This document shows, in pieces, positions 1-64,000 of a DNA stretch of 64,000 nucleotides. Location: positions 6,514-70,513 of the forward strand of contig JBEEGW010000001.1 of assembly GCA_041167045.1 (NCBI GenBank), in the 5' to 3' direction. The notes beneath the pieces are model-generated. The model saw nothing but the letters and a program-made list of their open reading frames with translations. It was not told the origin of the DNA and made no database searches. Both the position numbers and the translations under genes were made by a program. This DNA is from Verrucomicrobiota bacterium. Lineage in GTDB: Bacteria; Verrucomicrobiota; Verrucomicrobiia; Chthoniobacterales; UBA10450. Every line of letters begins with the position of its first letter. Within the stretch, counting starts at the first letter, position 1.

Positions 1-798
1 GCCGCGGCCGAGTTCCTCGCCTACACGGCGATTGCGGCTGTGCTGACTAAAACATGTCGCGATCAAATCGCCGGCGCCGCTGAGCCCATAAAATGTTTGT
101 GGTTGACCGCCCATCGCCATGCCGAGGCGCAACAGCTCGGCGAGCGCGCGTGTTACGAGAGCTGCTTTCGAATTGTCGCCGAGACCGATGCCGTCGCCGA
201 CCCCAGCAGAGATTGCGAACACGTTCTTCAATGCTCCGCCAAGTTCAATCCCGGTAATTTCTTCGCTTGTGTAAATACGAAAGCGTGGTGCGCTAAGGAA
301 TTCTTGCAGTTGAATCGCGCACTCGGGATCGCGACAACCCAAGACGGTGGCCGTGGGAAGATCGCGCGAAACTTCGACGGCGAGATTGGGTCCGGAAAGA
401 ACGGCAATGCGTTGAGACGGAAATATTTCTTCGAGAATTTCGCTCATGCGCTTTCCCGTGCGGTGTTCGATTCCTTTCGTGCAACTGAGTAACACTGCGC
501 GTGAATGAGGGGCCGCGTCCCGAAATCGCATCGCGATTTCGCGCAACGCCGTGGAAGGAGTGACGAATACTACAAGGTCCGCGTCTGCGCACTCAGACAA
601 ATCGGCGGTGACGTTGACCGAGACGGGGACCTTGATTCCGGCCAGGTGTTCCGAATTTTCACGCTGCCTCTGCAACCGCGCGACGCGCTCCGGATTATTT
701 CCCCAAAGAATGATTTGGTTGCCTCGCTTCGACCACAAAACTGCTAATGCGGTGCCCCAACCTCCCGCACCGATGACGGCAGTCCGATTGATCTTCAC
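1..798 (-). CDS. gpsA: NAD(P)H-dependent glycerol-3-phosphate dehydrogenase GpsA. N-terminal ~266 aa; the C-terminus runs off the window start.
   Basis: Hand translation of the minus strand from GTG at 798 gives VKINRTAVIGAGGWGTALAVLWSKRGNQIILWGNNPERVARLQRQRENSEHLAGIKGPRPVNVTADLSECADADLVVFVTPSTALR, the classic GpsA Rossmann N-terminus. The start overlaps the plsY stop as GTGA. It is absent from the ORF track, presumably because there is no in-window stop. Confidence 0.75.
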   Translation of the reverse strand, partial: MKINRTAVIGAGGWGTALAVLWSKRGNQIILWGNNPERVARLQRQRENSEHLAGIKVPVSVNVTADLSECADADLVVFVTPSTALREIAMRFRDAAPHSRAVLLSCTKGIEHRTGKRMSEILEEIFPSQRIAVLSGPNLAVEVSRDLPTATVLGCRDPECAIQLQEFLSAPRFRIYTSEEITGIELGGALKNVFAISAGVGDGIGLGDNSKAALVTRALAELLRLGMAMGGQPQTFYGLSGAGDLIATCFSQHSRNRRVGEELGRG

Positions 799-1427
799 TT
801 GCGAGTGAAACGTGGTTCCGTTCCATTCATCAGGCGAGAAAAATTCGAGCGGTGTCGCCAGACAATGATCGCCGCGATCGCAATCGAAAAATAAAAGAGT
901 GCCGCGCCGTGCATGATGATGCCCGCCCAGGAAAAAATTGCGACCGTGACTGGCAACGTTGTCGCGGCCGCTACGGAGGCCACGGAAACATACCGTGTCG
1001 TTTCGAATGCGATCACCCAAACAATCAGACCAACAGCAGCAACGAGCGGCATCAACGCGATGACGACGCCGCTCGAGGTGGCGGCGCCCTTACCTCCTTT
1101 GAATCGTAACCAGATCGGAAAGGAATGGCCGACCACGCAAGAGATCGCTGCAATAATGGCGCAGATCTCAAGTGGTTCGCCTCGGTATCCCATTCTCTCA
1201 CCGACAAAAATCGCGGCCCGAACCGCAAGAATGCCTTTCAGTGCGTCGACGAGAAACACGGCGTAGCCAAATCGTTTTCCTAAAAGGCGTACCACATTTG
1301 TCGCCCCGATATTGCCGCTTCCCGCGGCCCTAACATCGACATGAGCAAATCGGCCGACGAGAAATCCCGTTGGAAACGATCCTAACAGATATCCCATCGT
1401 CGCGACTATAAATACGCTGGAAATCAT
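795..1427 (-). CDS. plsY: glycerol-3-phosphate acyltransferase PlsY
   Basis: 210-aa multi-TM protein with typical PlsY motifs (GSGNIGATNV, HSFPIWLRFKGGKG). The gpsA-plsY adjacency is conserved. Confidence 0.85.
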   Translation of the reverse strand: MISSVFIVATMGYLLGSFPTGFLVGRFAHVDVRAAGSGNIGATNVVRLLGKRFGYAVFLVDALKGILAVRAAIFVGERMGYRGEPLEICAIIAAISCVVGHSFPIWLRFKGGKGAATSSGVVIALMPLVAAVGLIVWVIAFETTRYVSVASVAAATTLPVTVAIFSWAGIIMHGAALFYFSIAIAAIIVWRHRSNFSRLMNGTEPRFTRK

Positions 1428-4456: not shown

Positions 4457-6280
4457 TCAAACACTTCGCGCAAATTCCGCCAGCTCACTCGTTGTCTCGT
4501 ACCGCAGGAAGGGTGTGATGAGATAGACGCCCGGAAAATGGGCGAGCGCTTCTCGCGTAATTTCCTGCGCGAGTTTCATCCCGTACTCGCAAGCCTCCGC
4601 TGATCCCAGCGCCGACAATGCGGCACGCACTTTCTCCGGCACGATGATGCCGGGCACTTCGTTGTGCAAAAATTCTGCCTGCCGCCCACTTAGCAGCGGC
4701 CACACTCCCGTGAAAATCGGCACGCCCAGGTGCTCGGTGCGCCGATGCATTTGCTCGACAAGATCGACATCAAAAACCGGCTGTGTCATGACAAACCGCG
4801 CGCCCGCCGCCACTTTGCGCTCGAGCCGTTCAACCTGCGCGTCGAGATTTTTCGAGTTTGGATTAAACGTGCACCCGATCACAAAATCCGTCGCTGTGCG
4901 GATTGATTTCCCGGAATTGCTGAAGCCTTCGTTCATGCGCTTAATGATGGCGATCAGCTCAATCGAGTTGACGTCGTAAACCGAAGCCGCGCCCGGCTGA
5001 TCGCCCACGCGCGCCGGATCGCCGGTCAAAGGCAACACATGTCGCATGCCCAGTGCGGCCATTCCGAGCAGCTCACTTTGCAGGCCGAGCAAGTTGCGAT
5101 CGCGACAACTCAAATGGAGCAGCGGCGTAATTCCAAATCGTTCTTTTAACATCGCGCCGACCGCGAGATTGCTCACCCGCAAAATGGCCAGCGAATTGTC
5201 AGCCAGGGTGATTGCATCGCAACCTGCTTTCACGAGGCTTTGTGCGCCGGCGAAGAATTTTTCCAAAACCAATGTCTTCGGCGGATCCAGCTCGCAAATG
5301 ACTACGCGTTTTCCATTGTCGATCTTGTCGAGCAGGCTTTCTTCCGTTGCCCTTTGTTTTGGCGCCGGAATCGCACGCGGCGGTTCGGCAGTCACGCGTA
5401 CCGATTTTGTTTTTATCGGTTCAAGATCAGCGATCGCCCCCGCAATCGCGGCGATATGTTTCGGATTCGTTCCGCAACAGCCGCCGATCAGGCGCGCGCC
5501 TTCCGCTACCATCTCGCGCGCCGATTTTGCAAAATAATCCGGCGCGGTGTGATAAATAAACCGGCCCTCATGATATTTCGGGTAACCTGCGTTCGCATAC
5601 GCCGCGATCAGATATTTTGCCGGCACATGTTCCAGTAATTGCACCGTGCCGTGCGGACCGTTCATGCAATTCACTCCCAGGATTTTTGCATCGCGCTCGT
5701 GCAATCGCGCAAATGCGTCGACCAACAATTCGCCGCTTGCTAAGCGGCCTTCCGGCGCGCAAGCGAACGAGCAAATCGCGAGAGGATCTCCCAGCTCGCG
5801 CGCGGCTTGAAAGGCGAGCGCCAGTTCTTCGAAATCCATGAACGTTTCGAAAAAGACAAGATCGACATCTTCCTCCAGCAGCGCTGCAATTTGTTCCCGA
5901 AAACATTCCGCCCGATCAATGCCGCGAGCTTTCGCTTCGTCGGCCGTGATGCCAAGCGGTCCCACGCTGCCTGCCACGTAAACATTTTTATTCTTTGCCG
6001 CTCCTCGCGCTACGCGAACCGCCGCTCGGTTAATTTCGCTCACCCGGCTTTCCAATCCGAATCGCTCCAGTCGAACAGCGTTCGCACCGAACGTGTTTGT
6101 TTCGATCACGCGCGCGCCGGCCGCGATATATTCCTGGTGGATCGTCCGGATGCGATCCGGCTCGCTCACACAAAGCTCTTCAAAGCTCCGTTCCAGAGGA
6201 ACGCCCGCTTCGAGCAGCAGCGTGCCAATCGCGCCGTCGCCACAGAGCAAGCGGCTTTGCAATTCATCTACCAGATCCAT
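4457..6280 (-). CDS. bifunctional homocysteine S-methyltransferase domain / 5,10-methylenetetrahydrofolate reductase
   Basis: 607 aa. N-terminal Hcy-binding domain (GGCCGTNPKHI zinc motif) fused to a MetF-like MTHFR domain. Confidence 0.8.
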   Translation of the reverse strand: MDLVDELQSRLLCGDGAIGTLLLEAGVPLERSFEELCVSEPDRIRTIHQEYIAAGARVIETNTFGANAVRLERFGLESRVSEINRAAVRVARGAAKNKNVYVAGSVGPLGITADEAKARGIDRAECFREQIAALLEEDVDLVFFETFMDFEELALAFQAARELGDPLAICSFACAPEGRLASGELLVDAFARLHERDAKILGVNCMNGPHGTVQLLEHVPAKYLIAAYANAGYPKYHEGRFIYHTAPDYFAKSAREMVAEGARLIGGCCGTNPKHIAAIAGAIADLEPIKTKSVRVTAEPPRAIPAPKQRATEESLLDKIDNGKRVVICELDPPKTLVLEKFFAGAQSLVKAGCDAITLADNSLAILRVSNLAVGAMLKERFGITPLLHLSCRDRNLLGLQSELLGMAALGMRHVLPLTGDPARVGDQPGAASVYDVNSIELIAIIKRMNEGFSNSGKSIRTATDFVIGCTFNPNSKNLDAQVERLERKVAAGARFVMTQPVFDVDLVEQMHRRTEHLGVPIFTGVWPLLSGRQAEFLHNEVPGIIVPEKVRAALSALGSAEACEYGMKLAQEITREALAHFPGVYLITPFLRYETTSELAEFARSV

Positions 6281-8181: not shown

Positions 8182-8952
8182 ATGAACGCGCGCGTTCTCG
8201 ATCCAGCGAAAGATTCGAAACAATTCCCGCCCGGACTTTGCGCACTCGGCATTATGACAAAAGCGCCGCGCGCCGGAAAAGTGAAGACGCGTTTGACACC
8301 GCCACTTACGCCGCAGGAGGCCGCGGACTTAAACGTTTGTTTTTTGCGCGACATCGCTTCCGCGATTATGGCCGCGACGCGAAACAGCGCTGCCCGCGGA
8401 ATCGGAATTTATACTCCGCCCGGAAAAGAAAAATCTTTCGATGAAATTTTGCCGGATGAATTTCGACTGGTGGTGCAGCGCGGCGAAGGTTTCGGCGATC
8501 GACTAATTTTCGCGGCGGAAGACTTGTTAACTGTCGGCTTCCAATCAGTTTGCCTGATTAATTCGGATAGCCCGACCGTACCCTCAGAAACCTTTGCCGA
8601 AGCGGCAACCGAGTTGGCAAAACCTGGCGAAGGAATCGTGCTCGGTCCCTCAGATGACGGCGGCTATTTTTTGATCGGCCTCAAGAAATTAGATCGACAT
8701 CTTTTCGCGGACATCGATTGGAGCACGGAAAAAGTTTTTGCGCAGACGAAACAGCGCGCGGCTGAAATCGGCGTGCCGGTCCACGAACTGCCGCGCGGCT
8801 TCGACGTCGATGATCGCGCCACATTGCACCGTCTTTGCGACGAACTCCTGGGCCCGGAAACAAGATCGACAATCGACCTCGCGCCGCACACGCGAAAATT
8901 TTTGCGCGAAATTGTCGCGCGCGAAGGCCGCGCTAGAATTTGGCCGGCATGA
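8182..8952 (+). CDS. DUF2064 (TIGR04282-type) nucleotidyltransferase-fold protein
   Basis: N-terminal GIMTKAPRAGKVKTRL signature of the DUF2064 family. This family usually pairs with a GT2. Confidence 0.55.
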   Translation: MNARVLDPAKDSKQFPPGLCALGIMTKAPRAGKVKTRLTPPLTPQEAADLNVCFLRDIASAIMAATRNSAARGIGIYTPPGKEKSFDEILPDEFRLVVQRGEGFGDRLIFAAEDLLTVGFQSVCLINSDSPTVPSETFAEAATELAKPGEGIVLGPSDDGGYFLIGLKKLDRHLFADIDWSTEKVFAQTKQRAAEIGVPVHELPRGFDVDDRATLHRLCDELLGPETRSTIDLAPHTRKFLREIVAREGRARIWPA

Positions 8953-10082
8953 GCAAGAACGGAAAACGCGCACTCGTTACCGGCGGCGCCGGGTTGATCG
9001 GTTCGCACGTTGTCGATCTTCTCGTGCGCGAAGGTTGGCAAGTACGCGTGCTAGATAATCTAGAGCCGAACACGCATAAGTGCGGCAAACCTTCCTGGAT
9101 CAACCCCGCCGCGGAATTTGTCGAAGGCGACATGCGCGATCCAGAAACCGTCGCCGCCGCCCTCGACAAGATCGACATAGTTTTTCACCAGGCCGCCTAT
9201 GGCGGCTACATGCCCGAGATCGCGAAATACGTTCACGTCAATTCGCTCGGCACCGCGCAAATGCTCGAGATCATTCGCGAAAAAAACTTGCCGATCCAAA
9301 AAATCATCGTCGCCAGCTCGCAGGCAGTTTACAGCGAAGGCGCCGGCGAATGTCCGAAGCACAGGCTTGTTTTTCCGCCGGTGCGCCCCGTCGAACAATT
9401 GCAGCGGGGCGATTGGTCGGTGCGTTGTCCGCTCTGCGACGCGATTACGAAAAGCGTTCCGACTCTGGAAAACGCGCCCGTCGGCGGCGAAACAGTTTAC
9501 GGTCTGACGAAAGTCGATCAGGAAAAGCTCGTGCTGCTGTGGGGAAAACAAACCGGCATTCCCACGGTCGCGTTGCGCTACTCATGCACGTACGGGCCGC
9601 GCCAATCGATTTTCAATCCGTACACCGGCGTGATCGCGATTTTTTGCACGCGCCTGCTCAACAATTTGCCGCCCGTGCTTTACGAAGATGGCGACCAAAC
9701 GCGCGATTTTTCGTTCGTCGAAGATATCGCGCGCGCCAACTTGCTCGCGGCCGAAACAGACACGCTCGACGGCTTGGCGGTCAACGTCGGCAGTGGCCGC
9801 GGCGTTTCCATTCGCGAAATCGCCCAGCAAATTTCCGCCGCGCTCAAGATCGACATAAAACCGGAAGCGAAAGGCGAATTTCGTCCCGGCGAGATGCGTC
9901 ATCTCACCAGCGACACCACACGCATTCGCGCCGCCGGTTACAAACCGAATGTCGATCTTGCCGAAGGAATTTCGCGCTATCTCGATTGGATCCGAGCGCA
10001 ATCTGATGTGCGCGATTATTTCAGCGAAGCGGAAAACATTTTGCGCAGCAAAGGCATCGTTCATCGCGTCGCGAAAAGGTGA
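8949..10082 (+). CDS. NAD-dependent epimerase/dehydratase (SDR family)
   Basis: ALVTGGAGLIGSH Rossmann motif and catalytic YxxxK region. The ATG at 8949 overlaps the upstream stop as ATGA (translational coupling). Confidence 0.85.
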   Translation: MSKNGKRALVTGGAGLIGSHVVDLLVREGWQVRVLDNLEPNTHKCGKPSWINPAAEFVEGDMRDPETVAAALDKIDIVFHQAAYGGYMPEIAKYVHVNSLGTAQMLEIIREKNLPIQKIIVASSQAVYSEGAGECPKHRLVFPPVRPVEQLQRGDWSVRCPLCDAITKSVPTLENAPVGGETVYGLTKVDQEKLVLLWGKQTGIPTVALRYSCTYGPRQSIFNPYTGVIAIFCTRLLNNLPPVLYEDGDQTRDFSFVEDIARANLLAAETDTLDGLAVNVGSGRGVSIREIAQQISAALKIDIKPEAKGEFRPGEMRHLTSDTTRIRAAGYKPNVDLAEGISRYLDWIRAQSDVRDYFSEAENILRSKGIVHRVAKR

Positions 10083-10771
10083 ACGTCTCCGTCATCATTC
10101 CGGCGCTGAACGAAGAAGAGCCGATCGCCGATGTTGTGCGCGAATGTTTCGCGACGAAAATTCCGAGCGAAATCATCGTCGTCGATAACGGCAGTGACGA
10201 TTGCACTGCCGAACAGGCGCGCGAAGCTGGCGCGAAAGTTGTAAACGAGCCAGTTCGTGGTTACGGCCGCGCATGCCTCGCTGGAATTCGCGCGCTTTCG
10301 CCCAATTGCGGCATCGTCGTGTTCCTCGATGGCGATGGCAGCGATGTGCCCGCGTTCATGAACAAACTTGTCGATCCAATTGCGCGCGGCACACAAGATT
10401 TCGTGATCGGCTCGCGCGCGCGCGGACGACGCGAGCGCGGCAGCATGAACGCGCAACAAATTTTCGCTGGCCGTCTCGCCGGTTGGTTATTGTCGATCTT
10501 GTACGGCGTGCGCTACACCGACATGTGTCCGTTTCGCGCGATTCGCCGCGATGCGCTCGACAAGATCGACATGCGCGAAAAAACTTACGGCTGGAATTTG
10601 GAGATGCAGATGCGCGCCGCGCGCGAACGATTGCGCATTCTCGAAGTGCCGGTCGATCATCGGCGGCGCGCCGGCGGCGAATCGAAAGTTTCCGGCACAT
10701 TGCGCGGCACGTTTGTGGCCGGCACGCGAATTCTTGCGACGCTGCTGCGCATCGCGCTCGAAAGGAAGTAA
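10079..10771 (+). CDS. glycosyltransferase family 2
   Basis: VIIPALNEE...VVDNGSDDCT...DGDG motifs of GT-A fold GT2. The GTG start overlaps the epimerase stop as GTGA. Confidence 0.8.
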   Translation: MNVSVIIPALNEEEPIADVVRECFATKIPSEIIVVDNGSDDCTAEQAREAGAKVVNEPVRGYGRACLAGIRALSPNCGIVVFLDGDGSDVPAFMNKLVDPIARGTQDFVIGSRARGRRERGSMNAQQIFAGRLAGWLLSILYGVRYTDMCPFRAIRRDALDKIDMREKTYGWNLEMQMRAARERLRILEVPVDHRRRAGGESKVSGTLRGTFVAGTRILATLLRIALERK

Positions 10772-10812
10772 GTCTTTTTCCGAGCGCCGCTGCGAAATAT
10801 AGTCGCAACACC

Positions 10813-12375: not shown

Positions 12376-12383
12376 GATCGACA
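12374..12383 (+). repeat. motif copy whose 5' flank supplies the TAA stop of the molybdopterin oxidoreductase gene (TAAGATCGACA)
   Basis: AAGATCGACA at 12374..12383. The stop TAA is at 12373..12375. The same geometry occurs at 58482..58492 and, as a variant, at 16109..16118. Confidence 0.85.
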
Positions 12384-14197: not shown

Positions 14198-14244
14198 GAA
14201 ATAGTCAGAGATGCTTCGCCTTCGCTCAGCATGACAAAAAAGTG
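14198..14244 (+). promoter_or_regulatory. conserved upstream leader element, copy A, with mini-uORF ATG-ACA-AAA-AAG-TGA overlapping the GTG start of the GT4 gene
   Basis: About 40 nt (AATAGTCAGAGATGCTTCGCCTTCGCTCAGCATGACAAAA) is 35/40 identical to a sequence upstream of the S9 peptidase gene at 39154. It is preceded by an imperfect inverted repeat TCTCTGATTATT (14166..14177) / AATAGTCAGAGA (14200..14211). Confidence 0.5.
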
Positions 14245-17059: not shown

Positions 17060-17073
17060 CGAGTGGTGCTCGA

Positions 17074-41424: not shown

Positions 41425-41433
41425 TTGTCGATC

Positions 41434-42651: not shown

Positions 42652-42692
42652 GAGGCGACATTACGGGCCACGCGAAACGAATCAATGCGCAG

Positions 42693-46527: not shown

Positions 46528-46536
46528 GCGCCGGGG

Positions 46537-47589: not shown

Positions 47590-47755
47590 GGGATTTAGAC
47601 TTTCGGATCGCCGGGTTACCCCTGACGAGTGCGGCTTCGCGTCAACTGACGGAAACCCAGGGACCAACGGCGCAACTTCAAAACTCGCTGCGAACGTGGA
47701 ATCAACACCAAACTACGCAGAAATCAAGCGCGGATTTTTATGTCGATCTTGGGTC

Positions 47756-49627: not shown

Positions 49628-49678
49628 AAGCAAGATCGACAAGTAACGCGCGCATCGTTTCCGAATCAAACGGGCAAG

Positions 49679-51702: not shown

Positions 51703-51711
51703 GTCGATCTT
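51685..51711 (-). repeat. two direct copies of TGTCGATCTT, 17 nt apart, at the glmM start
   Basis: Exact 10-mers at 51685..51694 and 51702..51711. The glmM ATG (complement of 51700..51702) is formed by the motif's 3' flank (AAGATCGACATG). Confidence 0.9.
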
Positions 51712-51715
51712 AGTT

Positions 51716-53461
51716 TCACGGCGCACTTTCCTTAGGCGCAGACTTCGTCCGATCGTAATCAGCGAAAAATATGCATTCATTTTGCAGACCGAGCAGCGTC
51801 GCCCATTTCAGCGAAAACTTTTGTAAATCAGCGCGCAAAATCACGGCTGCCCAATCTTTATATTCGCCTTTCAGAATGTCGTTCAATTTATTCTCACTGC
51901 CGCTGATCGGCGTGAGGTAAAGCCCGTTCACCGGCGCGCCGAATGTGCCGTAGTCGTTGAAATCAGTAAAGGCGCGCTGCGTTTCCGGAAGCCAAATGCT
52001 GCGGCGGTCGGCATACCAGGCGACGGCCCATGGCATGTCCGAGGCGATGATTTCTTCGGGCTTCATCCAATCGTTGATGACTGAAATGTAAGGCGGCACG
52101 TAAGGCGGCCAGCGAATGCTCGGCTTGAAAGCGGCGAGCGCGGGGAAGGAAAGAATCATGGGCAAAGCGCAAAGGAGAAAGAGCGACGTTTGAAAACCGA
52201 TGCGCGCGATGCGCATGGTAATCTCGAGCCGATTCCAAAGCACGAGCAGGAATGCCAGGCCGTAGCAAGTCATGAGTGGAATAAAAATGAGATGCAATTG
52301 GTTCGCGGCCACGCCTTGTTCCTCGTTAATTCCGTAAGTGGCCATTCCAAAAAACGCGCCCACCCACATCGCCAGAATCATCCAGCGAATCGCGCCGGTA
52401 TCGGGACGCTTGAAAGCGTGCAGAAGACTCGCGAAAAAAAACGGCGCGACCACGCTCCATCCCAAATACTGGAAGAACCGATTCATCTGTCCGATTAGAT
52501 TTGCAATGATTTTATTTTTAAATGCGGCCGGGTCCGCGCCAGCAAGATCGAGATTGGCGTGACGCATCCAGGCGCCTTCGGTTTGATGAACGCCGTCGAG
52601 CACGGAATAAATCGCGGCTCCCCCTGGATGGCCGCAGACCAGATAATTTCGTGCGAGCCACGGCGCATAAACAATTGCGAATGCAGCGAGGACGATCAGC
52701 GCGCTCCATCCGCGCGGCCGGAAAAAGAGAACGCACAAGAGCAGCGCACCGGCGAACATCCAGATGGTGAGCGCGTGTGTAAGCGCGAGCAATCCAAAGC
52801 CGATTCCGATCGCTGCGAGCCAGAAGCGCGATTGCGTGCCGGCGATCTGCGTCTGCGCTGCGCGCACCGTGCAGTAAATTGTTGCGTTGAAAATCAGCAG
52901 CAAAAGCATCTGCGGCAAACCGGAGAGCGAGTATTGCCACATGGTGTCGCACAGCAGAATGAGCCCGCAGGCCAGCAGCGCGATGCGTTCATCAAAAAGC
53001 CGGCGCGCCGTAAAAAAAAGCACGACGTTTGAGAGCAGGAACAACAAGATCGACATAGCAGCGATCGCTTTGTCGCCCACATAAACCGAATCACGCACCG
53101 TCATCTTCCAATGCGCCTTGAATGGACGCAGCGCGATCGCGTCCACCAATGGCGGCAATGGCGCGTTGTAAGTGTCGATCCAAATTTTTTGAGGCACATT
53201 TTTTCCGTGGCTCTGCAATTGCGCGACGGCGCGCGGCCGAATGAAATTCGTGCGCCAACCGTGGCCGCGCGCGATTTCTCGGCCGATTTGCGCCTGGTCC
53301 ATCGCTTGCGACGTAGCCAGCCCGCGGAATTCGTGCATCAAATAAAAGAGCGCGAGTCCGGCGATCGCGACCACGACGAGCGCGCGCTTTACCCAAATGG
53401 CGAGGCCGCCGGCTTCGAGCGCATGCACGGCGCGCTGAACGAACTCAGCGCTACCGGGCAT
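51716..53461 (-). CDS. hypothetical polytopic membrane protein
   Basis: 581 aa with more than 10 predicted TM helices and a periplasmic C-terminal domain. Overlaps the 3' end of the downstream regulator gene by 11 nt. Confidence 0.4.
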   Translation of the reverse strand: MPGSAEFVQRAVHALEAGGLAIWVKRALVVVAIAGLALFYLMHEFRGLATSQAMDQAQIGREIARGHGWRTNFIRPRAVAQLQSHGKNVPQKIWIDTYNAPLPPLVDAIALRPFKAHWKMTVRDSVYVGDKAIAAMSILLFLLSNVVLFFTARRLFDERIALLACGLILLCDTMWQYSLSGLPQMLLLLIFNATIYCTVRAAQTQIAGTQSRFWLAAIGIGFGLLALTHALTIWMFAGALLLCVLFFRPRGWSALIVLAAFAIVYAPWLARNYLVCGHPGGAAIYSVLDGVHQTEGAWMRHANLDLAGADPAAFKNKIIANLIGQMNRFFQYLGWSVVAPFFFASLLHAFKRPDTGAIRWMILAMWVGAFFGMATYGINEEQGVAANQLHLIFIPLMTCYGLAFLLVLWNRLEITMRIARIGFQTSLFLLCALPMILSFPALAAFKPSIRWPPYVPPYISVINDWMKPEEIIASDMPWAVAWYADRRSIWLPETQRAFTDFNDYGTFGAPVNGLYLTPISGSENKLNDILKGEYKDWAAVILRADLQKFSLKWATLLGLQNECIFFADYDRTKSAPKESAP

Positions 53462-54884
53462 TTTTCGAATCCGCGGGCGACTTGTCGATCTTGTCGGAAT
53501 TGGTCGCGTTCATTTCATTAATTTTGCGGTGCAAAGTCCGCCGGCTGATGCCGAGTTTCTTTGCCGCTGCCGTAATGTTTCCACTCGTCGTCGCGAGCGC
53601 CTGCATAATCAACTTTCTCTCCGTCGCGTGCAGATCGAGCGGACTCGTTTTTTCGGCAAATGCTTTCGCCGGTGTGATACCGGCGGGCAAAGAGACAGCC
53701 GTCGCTTCTCGTAAAGTCATGGGCAAATCACGCAGGGTAATTTTCGCGCCGGTCGCCATGACGACTCCATGCTCGATCGCGGTGCGCAGCTCGCGCACGT
53801 TCCCGGGCCAATTGTAAGTGAGCAGGATATTCATCGCGTCCGCGTCCAACTCACGCACCGGCTTTTCGTTCGTCTTGGCGAAATGACGCAGAAATTCGCG
53901 TACCAGCAGCGGAATGTCTTCCTTGCGATCGCGCAGCGGCGGCATCGTGATATGCACGACGTTCAAGCGAAAATAAAGATCGTCGCGAAACTTTTCTTCC
54001 TTCACCAACTTCTCGAGATCCTTGTTCGTCGCGGCAATCAAACGCACGTCGGCGCGCAGGGTTTGATTGCCGCCCACGCGTTCGAATGCGCGTTCTTCGC
54101 TGATCACGCGGAGTAATTTAATCTGTGTGCTCGGATCGATCTCGCCGATCTCATCGAGAAAAATGGTGCCGCCGTTTGCTTGCTCGAAGCGGCCGACGCG
54201 CCGTTCGTGCGCGCCGGTGAAGGCGCCGCGCTCGTGCCCGAACAATTCGCTCTCGAGCAACGTCGGCGAAAGCGCCGCGCAATGCACCGTCACAAACTTC
54301 GCTTTGTTGCGCCGGCTTAAATTATGAATGGCATGCGCGGCCAGTTCCTTGCCCGTGCCAGTTTCGCCTTCGATCAAAACGTTGGCGGAGGACGGAGCGA
54401 CTTGCCGGATCGTGTCGAGCACTTCGTGCAGGGCGGGCGATGCGCCGATGATATTTTCGAGGCCGTAACGCTCGTCCACTTGCTGGCGCAGCGTGCGGTT
54501 CTCCTGTTCCACGCGGCGAGTTTGCAGCGCACGCGCGATCAACATCTCGACCTTGTCGAGATTGAGCGGCTTGGTTACAAAATCGTACGCGCCGCGCTTC
54601 ATCGCTTCGACCGCGGTGTCGACCGAGCCGTACGCCGTCATCATGATGACAATCGGCGGATGCGGAATGTTCAGTGTGCGCTCGATCAATGTCATTCCGT
54701 CGTCGCCGGCCAGTCGCAGATCGGTCAGCACAAGGTCGATTGGCTCGCGCTCGAGTACGTCCATTGCGCCGCGAATGTCTTCGGCCACATAGGTATCGTA
54801 ATCATTCTCGAGTAAACGCCGCAGCCCGTCGCGCGTGTGCTTTTCGTCATCGACGATGAGGATGGTAGGCTGGAGCGAGTCCAT
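53451..54884 (-). CDS. sigma-54-dependent Fis-family response regulator (REC + AAA+ + HTH)
   Basis: Receiver domain (LIVDDE...D), GESGTGKEL, the GAFTGA motif and a C-terminal Fis-type HTH. Confidence 0.9.
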   Translation of the reverse strand: MDSLQPTILIVDDEKHTRDGLRRLLENDYDTYVAEDIRGAMDVLEREPIDLVLTDLRLAGDDGMTLIERTLNIPHPPIVIMMTAYGSVDTAVEAMKRGAYDFVTKPLNLDKVEMLIARALQTRRVEQENRTLRQQVDERYGLENIIGASPALHEVLDTIRQVAPSSANVLIEGETGTGKELAAHAIHNLSRRNKAKFVTVHCAALSPTLLESELFGHERGAFTGAHERRVGRFEQANGGTIFLDEIGEIDPSTQIKLLRVISEERAFERVGGNQTLRADVRLIAATNKDLEKLVKEEKFRDDLYFRLNVVHITMPPLRDRKEDIPLLVREFLRHFAKTNEKPVRELDADAMNILLTYNWPGNVRELRTAIEHGVVMATGAKITLRDLPMTLREATAVSLPAGITPAKAFAEKTSPLDLHATERKLIMQALATTSGNITAAAKKLGISRRTLHRKINEMNATNSDKIDKSPADSKNAR

Positions 54885-55539: not shown

Positions 55540-57591
55540 ATGAAAACTGCCGCTCCGCCAGTACTCAGCATTTATTTGTTCGTCGTTTCCGTAGCGCTCG
55601 CGGCAACTCCTTCTCCCACGCCGACGAAGCAACGAACTTTGAAGCCGGAAGATTTCACGGCATTACGCGACGTGGATGAGCCGAACATTTCGCCAGACGG
55701 GAACTTCGTCGCCTACATCGTGAAGACGCCGGACATGGAGAAAGACAAAATTCCCGGCAACCTCTGGCTGGCAAAATTCGATGGCTCGGAAAATCGAGCG
55801 CTCACTTTCGGCAACAAAGGGCAGTCGCACCCGCGCTGGAGCCCCGATGGGAAATGGATCGCGTTTCTTTCCGGTCGCGAAGATGAAAACGAAATCGATC
55901 AGCTCTGGATCATGTCGAGCAGCGGCGGCGAAGCGGAAAAGTTTACCGATCTGAAGGGAAACGTGGACGACCTCGCGTGGGCGCCCGATTCGAAACGCAT
56001 CGTGCTCGTCGTGCACGATCCCGATCCGCGTGAGCCGGAGAAGAAAGAAAAGGAAAAGAAAACAGTGCCCCCGCTTGTGATCGATCGCTTCTTTTTCAAA
56101 AAAGATATCGACGGCTATCTGACCGATCGCTGGTCGCACCTGCAATTACTCGATCTCGCCACGCGCAAGATCGATATACTGACTTCGGGCAGGCACGACG
56201 AATTTTTGCCGGCATGGTCGCCGGACGGAAACGAGATCGCGTTTGTCACGAAGCGTGGCGACGAAGCTGATCGCACCGAAAATTGGGACGTTTGGGTGAT
56301 CGGTGCGCAAGCGGGCGCGAAAGAACGCCAGCTCACCACTTCGCCGGAAGCCGATGCGCATCCCGATTTGGAAAGCGCGCCGGCGTGGAGTCCCGATGGA
56401 AAATGGATCGCGTACATTCACGGCGGCGATCCGAAAAAGATCGAGTACGCCTTGCACGCGCTCGCCATCCTTCCAGCGGCGGGCGGCGAAGCCAAAGTGC
56501 TCACGCAAAATCTCGATCGCAACGTCGTGCAGCCACATTGGGCGCCCGATGGGAAATCGGTCTTCGCTGTTCTGGAAGATGACGGCGCGGAAAACCTTGT
56601 GCGCATCCCGCTCACGAACGGCGCACCGGAAACGGTTGTTGGGGGTCGTCGCGACGTCACCGCGTACGATGTGAGCAAGAATGGAAAGGTGATTGTGCGA
56701 TCAAGCACGCCGGATCGGCCGTTTGAAATTTTTGCGGCGGAAAAGAATGATCTCCGCTGTTTGTCGAAACAAAACGACGCGTTTTTTAGTCAGATCAAGC
56801 TCGGTCGCGTCGAAGAAACGAAATTCAAAAGCAAAGACGGCACCGAAGTTCACGGCTTCGTTATTCGACCTGTCGATCTTGTCGCCGGAGCGAAACCTTC
56901 GGCGCTGCTGCGTCCGCATGGCGGGCCGCAATCGCAATACGGCAACGCATTTGATTTCGAGAAGCAACTTTTCGCGGCGAACGGTTACGCCGTCATCATG
57001 CCGAACCCGCGCGGCTCGACCGGGCGCGGCGAAAAATTCGCGATGGGGATTTACGCGGACTGGGGACATGTCGATGTTGAAGACGACCTCGCCGCGGTCG
57101 ACGACGCGGTCGCGCGCGGCTTGGCCGATCCCGATCGGCTCGGAGTCGGCGGTTGGAGTTACGGCGGCATTTCCACGAATTACATCATCGCCAGCACCAC
57201 GCGCTTCAAAGCGGCTACGAGCGGCGCGTCGATTTCAAATGTCCTCGCCGGTTACGGGACCGATGAATATGTGCGCGATTACGAAGCCGAGCTTGGTTTG
57301 CCGTGGAAAAATGCCGAGGGGTGGATGCGGATCTCGTATCCATTTTTGCACGCCGACCGAATCAAGACGCCAACGCTTTTCCTTTGCGGCCAAAATGATT
57401 TCAACGTGCCGTTGCTCAACACCGAGCAAATGTATCAGGCATTGCGCAGTCTCGGCGTGCCGACCGAGCTGGTCATTTACCCCGGCCAATTTCACCGCTT
57501 AAAAAAGCCGAGCTACATCATCGACCGGTTCAAACGTTATCTCGATTGGTACGCGAAATGGATTTCTTCCACGAAAGACAATCCAAAATAG
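55540..57591 (+). CDS. S9 family serine peptidase (dipeptidyl aminopeptidase / acylaminoacyl peptidase type)
   Basis: Signal peptide, a beta-propeller, the nucleophile GGWSYGG and C-terminal Asp/His. Confidence 0.85.
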   Translation: MKTAAPPVLSIYLFVVSVALAATPSPTPTKQRTLKPEDFTALRDVDEPNISPDGNFVAYIVKTPDMEKDKIPGNLWLAKFDGSENRALTFGNKGQSHPRWSPDGKWIAFLSGREDENEIDQLWIMSSSGGEAEKFTDLKGNVDDLAWAPDSKRIVLVVHDPDPREPEKKEKEKKTVPPLVIDRFFFKKDIDGYLTDRWSHLQLLDLATRKIDILTSGRHDEFLPAWSPDGNEIAFVTKRGDEADRTENWDVWVIGAQAGAKERQLTTSPEADAHPDLESAPAWSPDGKWIAYIHGGDPKKIEYALHALAILPAAGGEAKVLTQNLDRNVVQPHWAPDGKSVFAVLEDDGAENLVRIPLTNGAPETVVGGRRDVTAYDVSKNGKVIVRSSTPDRPFEIFAAEKNDLRCLSKQNDAFFSQIKLGRVEETKFKSKDGTEVHGFVIRPVDLVAGAKPSALLRPHGGPQSQYGNAFDFEKQLFAANGYAVIMPNPRGSTGRGEKFAMGIYADWGHVDVEDDLAAVDDAVARGLADPDRLGVGGWSYGGISTNYIIASTTRFKAATSGASISNVLAGYGTDEYVRDYEAELGLPWKNAEGWMRISYPFLHADRIKTPTLFLCGQNDFNVPLLNTEQMYQALRSLGVPTELVIYPGQFHRLKKPSYIIDRFKRYLDWYAKWISSTKDNPK

Positions 57592-57658
57592 CCAGACCGA
57601 CTGTATTTTTTCGTAGGTTAAAGCAAGGCCGCGGGAGCTTCGGCGTTCGAACCACTTA

Positions 57659-58484
57659 TGTGGTTAAAGGGATAGCATGGCTGATTGTGGCGGCGCTTTT
57701 CAGCGCGGCGATTGCACACGCGGACGAACAGGTCCGCGAGGTGCAGGAACAACTGCGCAAGCGCCACCTCTTCTATCATGACATCGATGGCCGCTACACG
57801 GCTGATCTGGCCAATGCGCTCAAGCGTTATCAAGAGCACAAGGGTTTCGCCGCCACCGGCATCACGGATGATGAAACATTGAAGTCCCTCGGAATCGCCG
57901 GACCCGCGCCGCCCGCCGAGCTGCCGGACGAGCCTGTCTTGAAAAGCGACCTCGGGCTTCCCGGACCCACTCCAGTTTTCAACCTACCGATGATTCCGGT
58001 ATCTTTTACTTCGCCGCCGAAAAGCGCGGCTCCCACGCGGCAGCAAGTGGCTGATTTTGTTCGTCACTATTTTGATGCTTGCCAGGCCCCGAACTTCGAC
58101 GAGCTCGGATTTTATGCCGAGCGTGTCGATTATTTCGATCACGGTCCGGTCGATAAAAATTATATTAAGAACGAGCTCGCGGCCTATTACCAACATTGGC
58201 CGCAGCGAAAATATTTGCTCGGTAGTCGCATGCGGGTGGAAAAGCGCGGCGAAAAAATCGTGGCCCGCTTTCGCGTGGGATACAACGTGCTAAACCCGGC
58301 GCGCAATCGCAAAGCTGCCGGCAAAACGGACGACACGCTGGTGATGTCGCGTGGGCCCGATTCCGATTGGAAAATAGTGTCGATCCAGGAAGCGCGCATT
58401 CGCACCGGGCACCGTTATCGTTCAAACCCATTCACGGTCGCGGCGCATCGCGTGCACGGATTCGTGCGCAATCTTCTGCCGTAA
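57659..58484 (+). CDS. secreted protein with putative peptidoglycan-binding-like domain
   Basis: Signal peptide (GTG start inferred). A PG_binding_1-like segment (DIDGRYTADLANALKRYQEHKGFAATGITDDETL). The C-terminal domain is unknown. Confidence 0.45.
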
Positions 58485-58562
58485 GATCGACATCTTCTTT
58501 CGCCTGATCACCGCGCGAAAATGATTGCAAGGCGCACCACGACGCCGATCCTTGTCACTCCC

Positions 58563-60720: not shown

Positions 60721-62001
60721 TTAATCGGCACTAGCGCGCGTTCCCGCTTCGAGCATGCGCACGCGCCGGTCGATATAGGGCAGGCGAATGGTGAGCGTGA
60801 GCCCCTTGCCTTCCGTGCTTTCGATCGACATTTCTCCGCCGTGTTCGCGCACAATCCGGCGCACGATCAAAAGACCCAGACCTGAGCCGGAAGTTTTCGT
60901 CGTAAAATAGGGTTCGAATACGCGTCCCAGATTTTCCGCGGAGATTCCGCCACCGGTGTCATTGAAACTAATGAGCACGTGCGTGTCGTCGCGATCGGTG
61001 CGAATCCGCAGAATCCCGCGGCGCTTCATCGCTTCGAAACTATTTTTGATCACGTTATAAAAAGCCTGCTTCATCTGATCGCGATCCAGCTCGAGCATCG
61101 GCAGATCGGAGCGCAATTCCTGTTCGACCACGATATCTCGATCTTCGATTTCAGGCGCAAAGAAGCGCACCGCTTCTTCGATGATTGAGTTGATATTCTC
61201 TCGATGCAGCTCCGGTTTTGACGGACGAATCGCGCGCAGAAATTGCGTAACGATTGAATCAAGCCGGGTGATTTCAGCGCGGGCAATGTCGATCGAGCCC
61301 TGAAGCTCTTCGCGCGCCGGGCCTTCAAGTTTGCGAACATTGCGCTCCATCAATTGCAAATGGATGTGCAGTGAGTTGAGCGGGTTTCCGATTTCGTGCG
61401 CGACGCCGGCGGCGAGCAAAGTGAGCGCGTTGAATCGCTCCGACTCGATGGTTTGCTGTGCCGAGCGCCGGCTTTCGGTGATATCGCGCAGAATCATGGC
61501 GTGACCGACTGCTTCGGGGGACATGTCGATCTTGTTATTGTCGATCTTATCCCCGGCGCTTCGGCGCTCGATGATGAGCGGAACGATGTAGAAGTTGATG
61601 AACTTGTTTGCCGGATAAAAAATTTCCATGTCACGGCTGACCGCGCTGCTCGATTTGGAAAGCGATTCCCAATCGAGGCCGCGCACCCGTTCATCGAGCC
61701 GTTTTCCGACGGCGCTCTCCATGTCGAACCCAAAAAGCTCACAGGCCGCGTTGTTCACATAAGTGATGCGACCATTCGAATCGGTGACGATGATCCCTTC
61801 CTGAATCGAATTGAAAATCGTCTCGAGAAATCCTTTTTCCTGCGCGAGTCGCAGCAAATAATTCTGCACGTCCTCCGGTCCGATGCGGCCGAGACGCTCG
61901 ATCAGTTTCTCGAGAAAGCCGGATTTCATGATCGTGGAGCGGCGATCTGGGACCGCCGCTGATTCCGAACACGATAATGCGGCGCTTCTACTGCGCCGCA
62001 A
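60721..62001 (-). CDS. PAS-domain sensor histidine kinase (NtrB-like)
   Basis: PAS domain, the H-box HEIGNPLNSL and HATPase N/G boxes. Confidence 0.85.
   Translation of the reverse strand: MRRSRSAALSCSESAAVPDRRSTIMKSGFLEKLIERLGRIGPEDVQNYLLRLAQEKGFLETIFNSIQEGIIVTDSNGRITYVNNAACELFGFDMESAVGKRLDERVRGLDWESLSKSSSAVSRDMEIFYPANKFINFYIVPLIIERRSAGDKIDNNKIDMSPEAVGHAMILRDITESRRSAQQTIESERFNALTLLAAGVAHEIGNPLNSLHIHLQLMERNVRKLEGPAREELQGSIDIARAEITRLDSIVTQFLRAIRPSKPELHRENINSIIEEAVRFFAPEIEDRDIVVEQELRSDLPMLELDRDQMKQAFYNVIKNSFEAMKRRGILRIRTDRDDTHVLISFNDTGGGISAENLGRVFEPYFTTKTSGSGLGLLIVRRIVREHGGEMSIESTEGKGLTLTIRLPYIDRRVRMLEAGTRASAD
61524..61548 (-). repeat. two direct copies of TGTCGATCTT, 15 nt apart, inside the histidine-kinase coding region (encodes DKIDNNKIDM)
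   Basis: Exact 10-mers at 61524..61533 and 61539..61548. Confidence 0.9.
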
Positions 62002-62007
62002 AAAATT

Positions 62008-64000
62008 CTAGCGAACTGGTTGTTCGACCGGCGCTGCCTGTCCTGCCTCTTTTTCGGCGCGCTCTTTCAGCGCGGCTTTGCGCGAAAGTTTCACGCGGCC
62101 CTTGTCGTCGATGCCGATGCATTTCACCCAAATCATGTCGCCCATTTTTGCCACGTCTTCGGTGCGGTTGACTCGGAAATCGGCCAGCTCGGAAATGTGC
62201 ACAAGGCCGTCTCTTCCGGGAAATACTTCGACGAACGCGCCAAATTCTTTCACAGAAACAACGCGACCGTGATAAGTCTGCCCAATCTCGATCTCGCGCG
62301 CCATGCCGCCGATGATCTCCTTCGCGCGCGCCATGCTTTCGGGGCTGGTCGCGTAAATGTGGACGGAGCCGTCGTCCTCGATGTTAATTTCGGCACCCGT
62401 CTCTGCGACAATGCCCTTGATGGTTTTGCCGCCCGGTCCGATGAGCGCGCCGATCTTCTCGGGATTGATTTTGATCGTCTCAATGCGCGGCGCGTACTTC
62501 GAGAGTTCGGCGCGCGGTTTGTCGATGGCGCCGGCCATGATCGACAAAATCTTGGTGCGCGCTTCTTTCGCACGACTGACCGCTTCGGCCATGATTTTGT
62601 GACTGACGCCCGGAAGTTTTAGATCGAGCTGAAATCCAGTGACGCCGTTTGCCGTTCCGCAAAGTTTGAAATCCATGTCGCCGAAATGATCTTCGGAACC
62701 GATGATGTCGGTGAGCAGTTCGTAGCGTTTTAATTGTCGATCTTCGCCGTATTCGGTAACGAGGCCGACAGAAATTCCTGCGACCGTTCCTTTGACGGGA
62801 ACACCGGCATCCATGAGCGCGAGCATTCCGCCACAAACACTGGCCATCGAGGTCGAGCCGTTTGATTCCATCACTTCACTCGAAATGCGGATCGCGTAAC
62901 GGAAATCATTTTCGTTCGGAATAATCGGCTCGAGCGAGCGCTCGGCCAAGGCGCCGTGGCCGATCTCGCGACGGCTCGCGCCGCCGGTGCGTCCGGTTTC
63001 GCCTACGCTGAACGGCGGGAAATTGTAATGCAGAATGAAGCGCTTCGACGTCACACCGCCGCCGTAAGCATCGATGTTTTGCGATTCTTCGATGGGAGCG
63101 AGCGTGACGAGAGCGAGCGCCTGGGTTTCGCCGCGCTGAAAAATGGCGGTGCCATGAGCGCGCGGTAGCACGCCCACTTCGGCAGTGATCTGGCGAAGAT
63201 CGTCATAACCCCGACCATCCATGCGTTTCTTTTTTTCGAGCACGCTGATGCGAAATGCTTTTTTCTGCACGTAATCGAACGCTTGCGAGATCGAGAATTT
63301 GTCAGTCTCAGGATGCTTGGCGAGCACCGCGGTTTTCACTTCTTCGCGCAAATCTGCGACTGCTTTGCTGCGCGCGACTTTGCCTTCGGTGTAAAGGGCG
63401 CCTTCGATGCGATTGCCGGCAATTTGGTCCGCGATTTCCAGAACGTCGGGCTTCACGTTCAGCAGCGGCATTTCGCGTTTAGGTTTTGCCACTTTCGACG
63501 CGAGCTCTTTTTGAATGCGAATCATTTCACGCGCATGTCCGTGCGCAAACTCGAGCGCTTTCACGAACTCGGCTTCCGGTAATTCATTGGCGGCGCCTTC
63601 GATCATGATGACGTCGTTCTCGGTGCCGACGTAGACAAGATCGAGATCGCTCTGCTCGCGCTCAGCATGAGTCGGGTTAGCGATGAATTGTCCATTCACG
63701 CGACCGACGCGAACTGCTCCAATCGGACCGGCAAACGGAATGTCGGAAACGCTCAGCGCGGCGGATGCGCCGTTGATCGCGAGAATGTCCGGATCGTTCT
63801 CGCCATCGGCGCTGAGCAAGATCGAGATAATTTGCGTGTCGTAAAAATAACCAGCCGGAAAGAGCGGTCGCAGCGGCCGATCGGTCATGCGCGAAGTGAG
63901 CGTTTCTTTTTCGGAAGGACGACCTTCGCGTTTGAAATAGCCGCCCGGAAACTTTCCGACGGCCGCGGCTTTTTCGCGATAGTCGACAGTGAGCGGAAAA
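62008..64000 (-). CDS. pnp: polynucleotide phosphorylase (polyribonucleotide nucleotidyltransferase). The N-terminus lies beyond the window end.
   Basis: RNase PH domains, KH and S1 domains ([20 protein letters not shown]). The reading frame continues open to position 64000. Confidence 0.9.

Follow-up and report, generated by a model that had tools for sequence, protein, structure and literature searches.

The best-understood hyper-abundant words of bacterial chromosomes are uptake sequences. The DNA uptake sequence (DUS) of Neisseriaceae (GCCGTCTGAA or AT-DUS, with further dialects) is a non-palindromic word of 10-12 bp that occurs about once per kb on both strands and is read by the minor pilin ComP (PMC2817400, PMC3630211). 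The uptake signal sequence (USS) of Pasteurellaceae (AAGTGCGGT / ACAAGCGGT) consists of a 9-mer core with graded flanks, occurs at ~0.8 per kb and lies within open reading frames (ORFs) in 65% of cases; it can accumulate by molecular drive alone, and genes without homologues lack it (PMC2817400, PMC7811141). A 2025 survey records uptake-sequence words in these two proteobacterial families only (10.1101/2025.10.24.684340). In cyanobacteria the highly iterated palindrome HIP1 (GCGATCGC) and alternate HIPs are likewise hyper-abundant, at 15- to 300-fold; they are associated with orphan methyltransferases and their function is still unknown (PMC5861425, PMC4390886). Chi, the FtsK-orienting polar sequences (KOPS) and the architecture-imparting sequences (AIMS) are further short, over-represented, non-palindromic chromosomal words. 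Such polar signals show 75-90% co-orientation, and HIP-type words are, to our knowledge, known from cyanobacteria only. Here we describe a word, AAGATCGACA, that recurs throughout a 64-kb stretch of a Verrucomicrobiota genome (64,000 nucleotides of contig JBEEGW010000001.1; this whole stretch is called the window) and throughout the soil clade to which the genome belongs, and that we file with the genome-wide hyper-abundant words of the DUS/USS/HIP class.

Abundance, extent and spread of the word

The window contains 67 exact copies of AAGATCGACA, 30 on the plus strand and 37 on the minus strand, or about one per 0.96 kb. Dinucleotide shuffles of the window gave a mean of 0.30 copies and a maximum of 2, and an order-3 Markov model, whose expectation is inflated by the motif itself, gave 0.69; the enrichment is ~100-220 fold. 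AAGATCGACA is by far the most over-represented 8-12-mer, and no second word of similar behaviour was found among all 6- to 12-mers of the window, the other top words being its sub-words or one-base extensions. The original prediction, obtained by scanning the letters of the window, had estimated 65-75 copies, which the count bears out; it also had the orientations near-equal, as they are, although its split of 32:39 becomes 30:37. Most of its coordinates lay within 0-12 bases of a copy, but a few were off by up to 20 bases (16422 for 16402, 17321 for 17309, 50853 for 50842, 62747 for 62735), and it had passed over the copies at 8862, 9950, 13107, 15537, 19774, 28692, 31813, 32367, 33667, 34967, 36175, 37326 and 42128. 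A GC content given as ~59% was measured at 56.0%, and the longer form credited with about 15 copies was counted differently, CGACAAGATCGACA occurring nine times and GACAAGATCGACA 15 times. Its flank consensus was recovered, with C at -1 in 41 of the 67 window copies and A/T at +1 in 62.

A pooled set of 598 kb of clade DNA holding 550 exact copies defined the extent of the unit. Because 92% of the pooled copies have A or T at position 11, the true unit is the 11-mer AAGATCGACAW. This is asymmetric, its only palindromic parts being the internal GATC and TCGA. The pooled alignment has a weak C at -1 (53%) and G at -2 and -3 (43-44%), and no flank information was found in it outside -3 and +1. 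One-mismatch variants are several-fold to 30-fold enriched in this set, and only at positions 1, 2, 3, 9 and 10 (31 observed against 1.0 expected for T1; 33 against 5.2 for G9). Variants at positions 4-8, the core ATCGA, are at about background.

When the window copies were aligned, the flanks proved unique to each copy, and in a repeat search the similarity around copies extended at chance-level identity only and not beyond ~14 bp; the unit is therefore a word and not a repeat element. No Rfam match falls on the AAGATCGACA copies, motif-centred windows fold less stably than random ones and show no hairpin potential, and across all 550 copies stem partners nearby are barely more frequent than in random sequence (8.4% vs 5.2%). 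A dispersed mobile or structured repeat family (repetitive extragenic palindromic (REP) or BIME elements, miniature inverted-repeat transposable elements (MITEs), or a CRISPR-like array) or an assembly artefact would supply many copies, and some relatives do carry a RayT/REP-transposase domain next to or fused to carB. The chance of this is negligible: similarity ends at ~14 bp, hairpins and Rfam matches are missing at the copies, 85% of copies lie in ORFs and in all frames, and the word is present in independent assemblies from JGI, ENA, NCBI and Logan. The unique flanks, coding location and independent assemblies rule it out. An RNA element was likewise rejected, as there is neither an Rfam hit nor structure, and so was a terminator role.

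The DNA that carries the word is ordinary chromosome, encoding MnmG, a homocysteine methyltransferase/MTHFR fusion, Fpg, thioredoxin reductase, PriA, PolX, ThiG, CarB, ScpB, phosphoglucomutase and one tRNA-Thr. The window's MnmG is the product of a gene on a 1.85-Mb contig in JGI metagenome 3300044827, and its CarB matches more than 120 database clusters at 85-94% identity, named 'Verrucomicrobiota bacterium' or 'Chthoniobacterales bacterium', from which the clade is recognised as a very abundant, diverse and uncultured soil lineage; at a guess, it may be Udaeobacter-like. Metagenomes were scanned for direct pairs of the word separated by 1-31 nt, which gave at least 120 loci. Among the matches listed, ~60 are non-redundant clade loci of GC 0.52-0.60 from many different soil metagenomes; with the retrieving pair excluded, they carry further copies at 0.58 per kb, and some at 1.5-2.1 per kb. 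The other matches were chance KID-repeat coding sequences in unrelated GC classes. Two IMG/VR contigs of GC 0.67 (L211, L219) were discarded as carriers, their copies sitting inside a different, longer repeat, TTCAAGATCGACAC(C/T)TGACCAAGATCAA, with C at position 11. The IMG/VR close-pair scan contained no viral contig of clade-like density; clade phages perhaps lie outside that collection.

Five loci, L203, L204, L205, L206 and L245, are syntenic with positions 14-47 kb of the window (CarB 85-93% identical) and carry 0.65, 1.68, 1.21, 0.90 and 1.31 copies per kb; across dozens of independent clade contigs the density is 0.2-2 per kb. As an outgroup control, a CarB scan of species-representative genomes was used. 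Among the best 80 of at least 600 matches, the closest CarB belonged to Verrucomicrobia metagenome-assembled genomes (MAGs) at 70-72% identity, and AAGATCGACA was enriched at none of these 80 loci. The word is genome-wide and clade-wide, and private to one Chthoniobacterales-like Verrucomicrobiota clade. Two outgroup loci without AAGATCGACA have repeated 9-mers of their own with unique flanks: a Chthoniobacterales MAG (L002, 5.6 kb) with CGGTCAAAG (n = 4), and a Verrucomicrobia MAG (L015, 23 kb) with CACCGGAGA (n = 6) and CCGAGGAAA (n = 5). These could be different 'dialects', or chance.

The copies are used without regard to frame or direction. In the window 32 read in sense and 27 in antisense, with all six frames in use, and 8 lie between genes or at the edge of an ORF; the spacing is about Poisson (coefficient of variation 0.90; variance/mean 1.12 in 4-kb bins). 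In the pooled set sense and antisense copies number 175:198, positions within genes are uniform, and over 41 loci 209 copies lie on the locally G-rich strand and 186 on the C-rich strand (Spearman rho 0.08). A Chi-, KOPS- or AIMS-type polar signal guiding RecBCD/AddAB or FtsK would also be a short, over-represented, non-palindromic word, and this chromosome is rich in genome-maintenance genes (PriA, PolX, Fpg, ScpB). We consider it very improbable. Neither the 30:37 orientation in 64 kb nor the 209:186 ratio against local GC skew has the polarity of such signals, and this absence rules out a polar word; moreover, an 11-mer enriched at least 100-fold and written into coding sequence far exceeds known Chi or KOPS. 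The original prediction thus stands where it had the word above Markov expectation (67 vs 0.69), spread beyond this region (five syntenic loci and ~60 clade loci among the matches listed), tolerated in all six frames and between genes, and without positional polarity or replichore-dependent strand skew. The likeness it drew to DUS and USS holds for abundance, non-polarity, clade spread, site conservation and frame tolerance, but not for inverted pairs and terminator hairpins.

Effects on proteins, turnover of sites and possible causes

Within genes the word specifies a small set of peptides, which in the window are KID[IMNK], [EQK]DR[QH], xRST, xVDL, [ML]SI[LF] and CRSW, and it dominates the way in which these are encoded. 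Lys-Ile-Asp followed by an A-initial codon is spelled AAGATCGAC in 19 of 20 window occurrences, where codon usage predicts 9%, and Val-Asp-Leu is spelled GTCGATCTT in 20 of 23 (2.8% expected). The corresponding figures for the pooled set are 118/129 for KID-(A..) and 166/227 for VDL. The proteome is distorted as well: KID is the top over-represented tripeptide of the clade sample (observed/expected 5.7), and MSI (4.3), IDN (4.1), HVD (4.0), CRS (3.8), VDL (3.6) and DRQ (3.2) are all word-encoded.

CarB (34511-37714) illustrates this effect, as its five copies depend on amino-acid replacements that are specific to the clade and fall where the protein is otherwise conserved. The antisense copy at 34967-34976 (+) gives DVDL (outgroups D[D/A/K/E]DL, the change being D[D/A]DL to DVDL) and the sense copy at 37326-37335 (-) gives EDRQ (outgroups EDR[L/E/N]; EDR[L/E] to EDRQ); both are exact in 5/5 relatives. 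The sense copies at 35712-35721 (-; EDRQ, where several outgroups have EDRK; exact in L204, L205 and L206) and 36340-36349 (-; KIDK, where most outgroups have KIDP; exact in L204, L205, L206 and L245) reflect the changes EDRK to EDRQ and KIDP to KIDK. The copy at 36175-36184 (-) is a gain of the window only, with RKAAGV changed to RKIDNI (relatives RKAAGV/RKFEDV/RIQEKV). Selection at the peptide level was rejected, since all six frames are used and copies also occur between genes. As judged from these sequences, the force works on DNA rather than on RNA or protein, and overrides proteins.

Sites are conserved beyond their surroundings. Window copies are exact in 12/29 comparisons with L203, 16/21 with L204, 15/20 with L205, 6/15 with L206 and 14/22 with L245, in all 63 of 107 site-by-relative comparisons against ~17 expected. 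The expectation derives from random 10-mers, which are perfectly conserved in 12-19% of cases in these alignments at 77-82% nucleotide identity, and the flanks of conserved copies are at background (74-82%). In a smaller test on non-ascertained copies of orthologous metagenome loci, 7 of 13 were exact (2.1 expected). Turnover is also evident. L203 (JGI 3300048793, a 1.43-Mb contig) is the closest relative by CarB (93%), yet carries the word most sparsely (0.65 per kb); of the 13 copies aligned, 12 occur in the window as well, 17 of 29 window copies are changed there, and many of these losses are single base changes at sites kept in L204 and L205. From this pattern the L203 lineage seems to be losing the word. 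The window in turn has private gains. At a PolX site the word stands on one strand in the window (27197-27206, +, in sense, KIDI) and on the other in L204 (~22310) and L245 (~6137), where it reads ATGTCGATC(TT); the palindromic TCGA keeps the register despite the opposite orientations.

Of the copies, 15% fall outside ORFs, in DNA that makes up at most 9% of the sequence. Intergenic density is 1.65-1.7 per kb in convergent and tandem spacers and 0.63 in divergent promoter spacers. The TAA stop of three genes is formed by the t and AA of tAAGATCGACA: at 12374-12383 (+) for ORF 10201-12375 (+), whose tAA takes in the word's first two bases, at 41426-41435 (-) for ORF 41434-42651 (-) (exact in L204, changed in L203), and at 58483-58492 (+) for ORF 57546-58484 (+). 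Three copies abut or overlap ATG starts as ACAtg or aTGTCGATCTT. The copy at 28313-28322 (+), exact in L245 and changed in L203 and L204, directly follows the CAT that is the ATG of ORF 27488-28312 (-); that at 31333-31342 (-), exact in L205 and L245, ends in the A that opens the ATG of ORF 30272-31333 (-); and that at 34464-34473 (+), between CarB and the PPIase gene, reads aTGTCGATCTT, or MSIL, at a possible start (exact in L204 and L205, changed in L203 and L206). The word seems to settle preferentially at the edges of genes.

The abundance, non-polarity and conservation of the word, together with its effects on codons and proteins, require a strong, orientation-blind process at the level of DNA. 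Biased uptake combined with homologous recombination is the only experimentally understood process with such an outcome, and for this reason our best reading, held with a probability of roughly 0.45, is that the word is a DNA-uptake or self-recognition signal kept by molecular drive, as DUS and USS are. A surface or periplasmic receptor of a natural-transformation system would bind double-stranded DNA carrying the word in either orientation, and such fragments would be preferentially taken up and then recombined into the chromosome. Mutations that create or improve a copy would spread in the population and those that destroy one would be reverted. Copies would build up in 3' intergenic DNA, at stop and start codons, and wherever a protein tolerates the peptide that results (KID, VDL, DRQ, RST, MSI, CRS). 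Biased uptake plus recombination is thus the drive we infer, and membership in the uptake-sequence family proper is unproven.

Several observations weigh against an uptake signal. Crude regular expressions for type IV pilin, PilB/T, DprA, ComEA, ComEC and secretin signatures found none in ~600 kb of clade DNA, no competence or pilus gene is among the window's 52 ORFs, a fraction of a genome, and the searched literature holds no report of natural transformation in this lineage. Terminators account for about half of all DUS and USS sites, and inverted pairs are frequent there (10.1101/2025.10.24.684340). Here the 175 copies in 165 kb of DNA from the window and the syntenic loci include no inverted pair closer than 68 bp, no association with terminator hairpins was found, and the 85% ORF share is far more coding than that of known uptake sequences. 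The tripeptides specified by USS and DUS are about doubled (PMC2817400), and the 3.6-5.7-fold distortion in the clade is stronger than in any known uptake-sequence genome. Direct pairs are a further such point. Among the matches listed (L083-L202), 47 of ~130 pairs have a start-to-start distance of 15 bp, followed by 16 bp (n = 12) and 17 bp (n = 5). In the unascertained DNA of the window and syntenic loci, two 15-bp pairs occur among the 175 copies against 0.09 expected, at window 61524-61548 (-; copies 61524-61533 and 61539-61548, spacer ATAAC) and at L204 8516-8540. The window also has a 17-bp pair at 51685-51711 (-; copies 51685-51694 and 51702-51711, the latter followed by tg, a possible ATG start of phosphoglucomutase). 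Spacer sequences are unrelated from pair to pair, and most pairs fall between genes or at the ends of ORFs; there is no evidence that the 15-bp pairs are recent tandem duplications, as spacers and adjacent flanks are unlike each other. They fit none of the explanations so far. Finally, a HIP1 model accounts equally well for the mismatches at outer positions and for the orphan methyltransferase conserved in the clade.

This methyltransferase is an orphan-looking beta-class N6/N4 DNA methyltransferase of 260 aa at 29498-30280 (+) (PF01555), whose SPPY-type TSPPYN motif suggests m4C. No restriction partner is evident near it. Among the matches listed, homologues all belong to the clade. The gene is syntenic across the clade (HD - methyltransferase - ThiG), its product is 74-99% identical, and its 783 bp hold four copies of the word: 29563-29572 (-; antisense, HVDL; exact in 5/5 relatives), 29631-29640 (+; sense, QDRQ; exact in L203, L204 and L205, changed in L206 and L245), 29921-29930 (+; sense, KIDI; exact in L204, L205 and L245, changed in L203 and L206) and the window-specific 30094-30103 (-; antisense, PVDL; changed in 5/5). 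Its best solved relatives match at E ~1e-23 only, and its specificity is therefore not assignable from them. A link to the word is possible but unproven.

The word may instead be HIP1-like: an intracellular, sequence-specific bias would convert near-cognates into AAGATCGACAW and restore mutated copies, with no uptake. It might consist of very-short-patch or mismatch repair, or gene conversion, perhaps tied to GATC, TCGA or ATCGA methylation by an orphan methyltransferase. The enrichment of one-mismatch variants at outer positions only, with core ATCGA variants near background, is what such a bias would leave, and Elhai described the same outer-position deviation for HIP1 (PMC4390886). As with HIP1 (PMC5861425), conservation of the sites exceeds background, GATCG is common to both words, the near-saturation of compatible peptides fits deterministic conversion, and the methyltransferase just described is a syntenic core gene of the clade with four copies. 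We rate this model as unlikely. HIPs coincide with methyltransferase sites and are palindromes of 8 bp, whereas the present word is an asymmetric 11-mer; this length exceeds the site of any Vsr-type repair nuclease known to us, and no Vsr-like gene lies within the window. The candidate methyltransferase, of unassigned specificity, is also present in L203, where copies decay. More broadly, the word could be the footprint of some intracellular system that writes and maintains an asymmetric 11-mer clade-wide, and not an uptake tag; we hold this to be rather unlikely. Such a system might be a biased repair or gene conversion coupled to the orphan methyltransferase, or a 'self' mark read by a protein binding adjacent 15-bp units.

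Selection on individual sites offers another account, in which the word is the site of an abundant DNA-binding protein. Such an array could serve nucleoid or chromosome organisation, or act as a 'self' mark for a recombination or defence system without polarity. Orientation-independent sites that are conserved while their flanks diverge would be expected, as would an even spacing of copies along the chromosome; the excess of direct pairs at 15-17 bp, mostly at gene boundaries, suggests two adjacent footprints or cooperative binding; and a role in chromosome structure has been argued for HIP1 (PMC5861425). A single site among thousands, however, should bring too little benefit to impose amino-acid changes on CarB, or to turn 91-95% of the KID-(A..) and 73-87% of the VDL codon strings into the word; drive accounts for these more readily. 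Close lineages vary about ten-fold in density (0.2-2 per kb), which would be surprising if the role were architectural and essential, and no candidate protein has been identified. A selected array is therefore quite unlikely in our estimation.

Remaining copies and their neighbourhood

The other copies are spread over the length of the window; coordinates span the 10-mer AAGATCGACA, followed by its strand. ORF 4457-6280 (-) holds one sense copy (5317-5326, -; KIDN) and two antisense copies (4760-4769 and 5858-5867, both +; DVDL). An identical 21-mer, CGAAAAAGACAAGATCGACAT, is shared by 5848-5868 and 26601-26621, in two unrelated genes, probably by coincidence of EKDKID-type peptides. A sense copy at 8862-8871 (+) gives TRST in ORF 8182-8952 (+), and the next gene, ORF 8940-10082 (+), combines two sense copies (9168-9177 and 9846-9855, both +; KIDI) with two antisense ones (9011-9020, -, VVDL; 9950-9959, -, NVDL). 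ORF 10201-12375 (+) has, in addition to its stop codon, an antisense copy at 10491-10500 (-; IVDL) and a sense copy at 10562-10571 (+; QDRH). The Fpg ORF 12387-13181 (-) is crossed in antisense at 13107-13116 (+; IVDL). Two sense copies lie in ORF 14242-15417 (+), at 14383-14392 (+; KIDN) and 14864-14873 (+; QDRH, changed in L245), and an intergenic copy follows at 15537-15546 (+; exact in L245). Antisense copies at 16402-16411 (-; IVDL, ORF 16307-17059 (+)) and 17309-17318 (-; MSIF, ORF 16981-18675 (+)) precede a sense copy at 19774-19783 (-; KIDI) in ORF 18698-20017 (-).

Among the genome-maintenance genes, PriA (ORF 22764-25010, -) contains sense copies at 23348-23357 (-; KIDI; exact in L245) and 24617-24626 (-; KIDI; exact in L203 and L245) and an antisense copy at 23781-23790 (+; IVDL; exact in L245). 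ORF 25149-25646 (+) follows with QDRQ at 25426-25435 (+; exact in L245, changed in L203). PolX (ORF 25562-27484, +), besides the site that differs in orientation, has sense copies at 26611-26620 (+; TRST; exact in L204 and L245, changed in L203 and L206) and 27446-27455 (+; KIDM; exact in L203 and L204, changed in L206 and L245). In ThiG (ORF 28638-29450, -) the sense copy at 28692-28701 (-; ERST) is exact in L204 and L205 and changed in L203, L206 and L245.

Beyond the methyltransferase, ORF 31358-32698 (-), a 446-aa frame without Pfam or NCBIfam match, has a sense copy at 31813-31822 (-; KIDI) and an antisense copy at 32367-32376 (+; MSIF). Upstream of this ORF, a c-di-AMP riboswitch (ydaO/yuaA, Rfam RF00379, 59.5 bits) was identified at 32773-32921 (-), and the intergenic copy at 32973-32982 (-) lies just 5' of it. 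The CN-hydrolase ORF 32998-33978 (-) has a sense copy at 33667-33676 (-; GRST) that is exact in 5/5 relatives. Several clade CarB entries are long, at ~1300-1360 aa (P0060, P0064, P0077, P0083, P0085, P0094, P0107, P0109). Most of them have a Y1 transposase domain (PF01797) and/or are annotated as a carbamoyl-phosphate synthase-RayT (REP-mobilising) transposase fusion, i.e. a RayT gene adjoins or is fused to carB in those relatives.

Further along the window from CarB, an antisense copy crosses the SufE ORF 37763-38218 (-) at 38021-38030 (+; HVDL; changed in L203, L204 and L205). In ORF 39208-41424 (+) the antisense copy at 39393-39402 (-; DVDL) and the sense copy at 40588-40597 (+; KIDM) are exact in L203 and L205, and the antisense copy at 40908-40917 (-; YVDL) is changed in both. 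The DEAD helicase encoded by ORF 41434-42651 (-) has a sense copy at 42128-42137 (-; KDRQ; exact in L203, L204 and L205). Two antisense copies in ORF 42645-43148 (+) are exact in L203 and L204 (42757-42766, -; MSIL) and in L203, L204 and L205 (42902-42911, -; IVDL). Changed in L203 are the antisense copies at 44892-44901 (+; TVDL), in the MacB-like ORF 43155-45575 (-), and at 46255-46264 (-; CRSW), in ORF 45928-47064 (+); the copy at 46518-46527 (-) is antisense in the latter ORF, or stands at the ATG of an alternative ORF, 46039-46518 (-).

The remaining copies are all, the two direct pairs and the stop codon at 58483 apart, placed within ORFs. Antisense copies occur at 47741-47750 (-; CRSW) in ORF 47588-48115 (+), at 49632-49641 (+; LSIL) in the LemA ORF 48992-49669 (-), at 50225-50234 (+; IVDL) in the ScpB ORF 49679-50305 (-), at 50842-50851 (+; AVDL) in the phosphoglucomutase ORF 50302-51780 (-), at 53046-53055 (+; MSIL) in ORF 51716-53461 (-) and at 56871-56880 (-; PVDL) in ORF 55540-57591 (+). 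Sense copies occur at 50355-50364 (-; KIDI) in phosphoglucomutase, at 53483-53492 (-; KIDK) in the sigma-54 activator ORF 53451-54884 (-) and at 62735-62744 (-; EDRQ) in ORF 62008-63888 (-).

Significance and comparison with known systems

The searched literature mentions the word or its complement in primers and constructs only and not as a genomic motif, and it contains no relevant report of uptake sequences in Verrucomicrobia or Udaeobacter. The clade is very widespread in soil metagenomes, with thousands of protein clusters matched and with hits in many independent samples. If the word is an uptake signal, a dominant soil lineage would practise natural transformation with a preference for its own DNA; a new receptor would be predicted, and the word, for example added to donor DNA, would offer a handle for genetic access. 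If an intracellular writer proves true, the word would be a non-palindromic counterpart of HIP1 and could expose how such words arise. Independently of its function, the word sharply marks the clade, so that its members can be binned and tracked and foreign DNA within them flagged. The ten-fold differences in density, including one lineage that only loses copies, are a natural experiment in which phylogenetic profiling could find the responsible gene, and that gene would bear on the long-open HIP1 question.

Set beside the described systems, the word is least like Chi, KOPS and AIMS. Those are strongly co-oriented with replication and few-fold enriched, whereas AAGATCGACAW is non-polar and enriched ~100-220-fold. 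It resembles HIP1 in that sites are conserved within and between ORFs and deviations are biased to the outer nucleotides (PMC5861425, PMC4390886). HIPs, however, are palindromic GC-rich 8-mers equal to or containing methyltransferase sites, and the present word is asymmetric. With USS it shares a reading-frame preference set by tolerable peptides and codon usage (PMC2817400, PMC7811141). USS has AT-rich, helically phased flanks and pairs in terminators, and its uptake specificity has been shown experimentally; here the information stops at -3 and +1, and the word is known from sequence.

The likeness to DUS is broader. Both are non-palindromic words of similar length at about one per kb on both strands, both are lineage-specific with sites common to related lineages, and both occur in genes and in 3' intergenic DNA. 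Both combine a strict core with outer positions that tolerate change, and both distort tripeptide frequencies (PMC2817400, PMC3630211). The two differ in sequence and phylum. DUS often form inverted pairs that act as terminators and ComP reads them; in the clade no such pairs were found, crude regular expressions over ~600 kb recovered no ComP-like pilin or competence genes, and direct pairs at 15 bp, not a known property of DUS or USS, are present instead. About 35% of DUS lie in ORFs against 85% of the copies here, and tripeptides are distorted ~2-fold there against 3.6- to 5.7-fold here. The word thus places a member of the DUS/USS/HIP kind in uncultured soil Verrucomicrobiota, where it shapes codons and proteins more strongly than any such word known.

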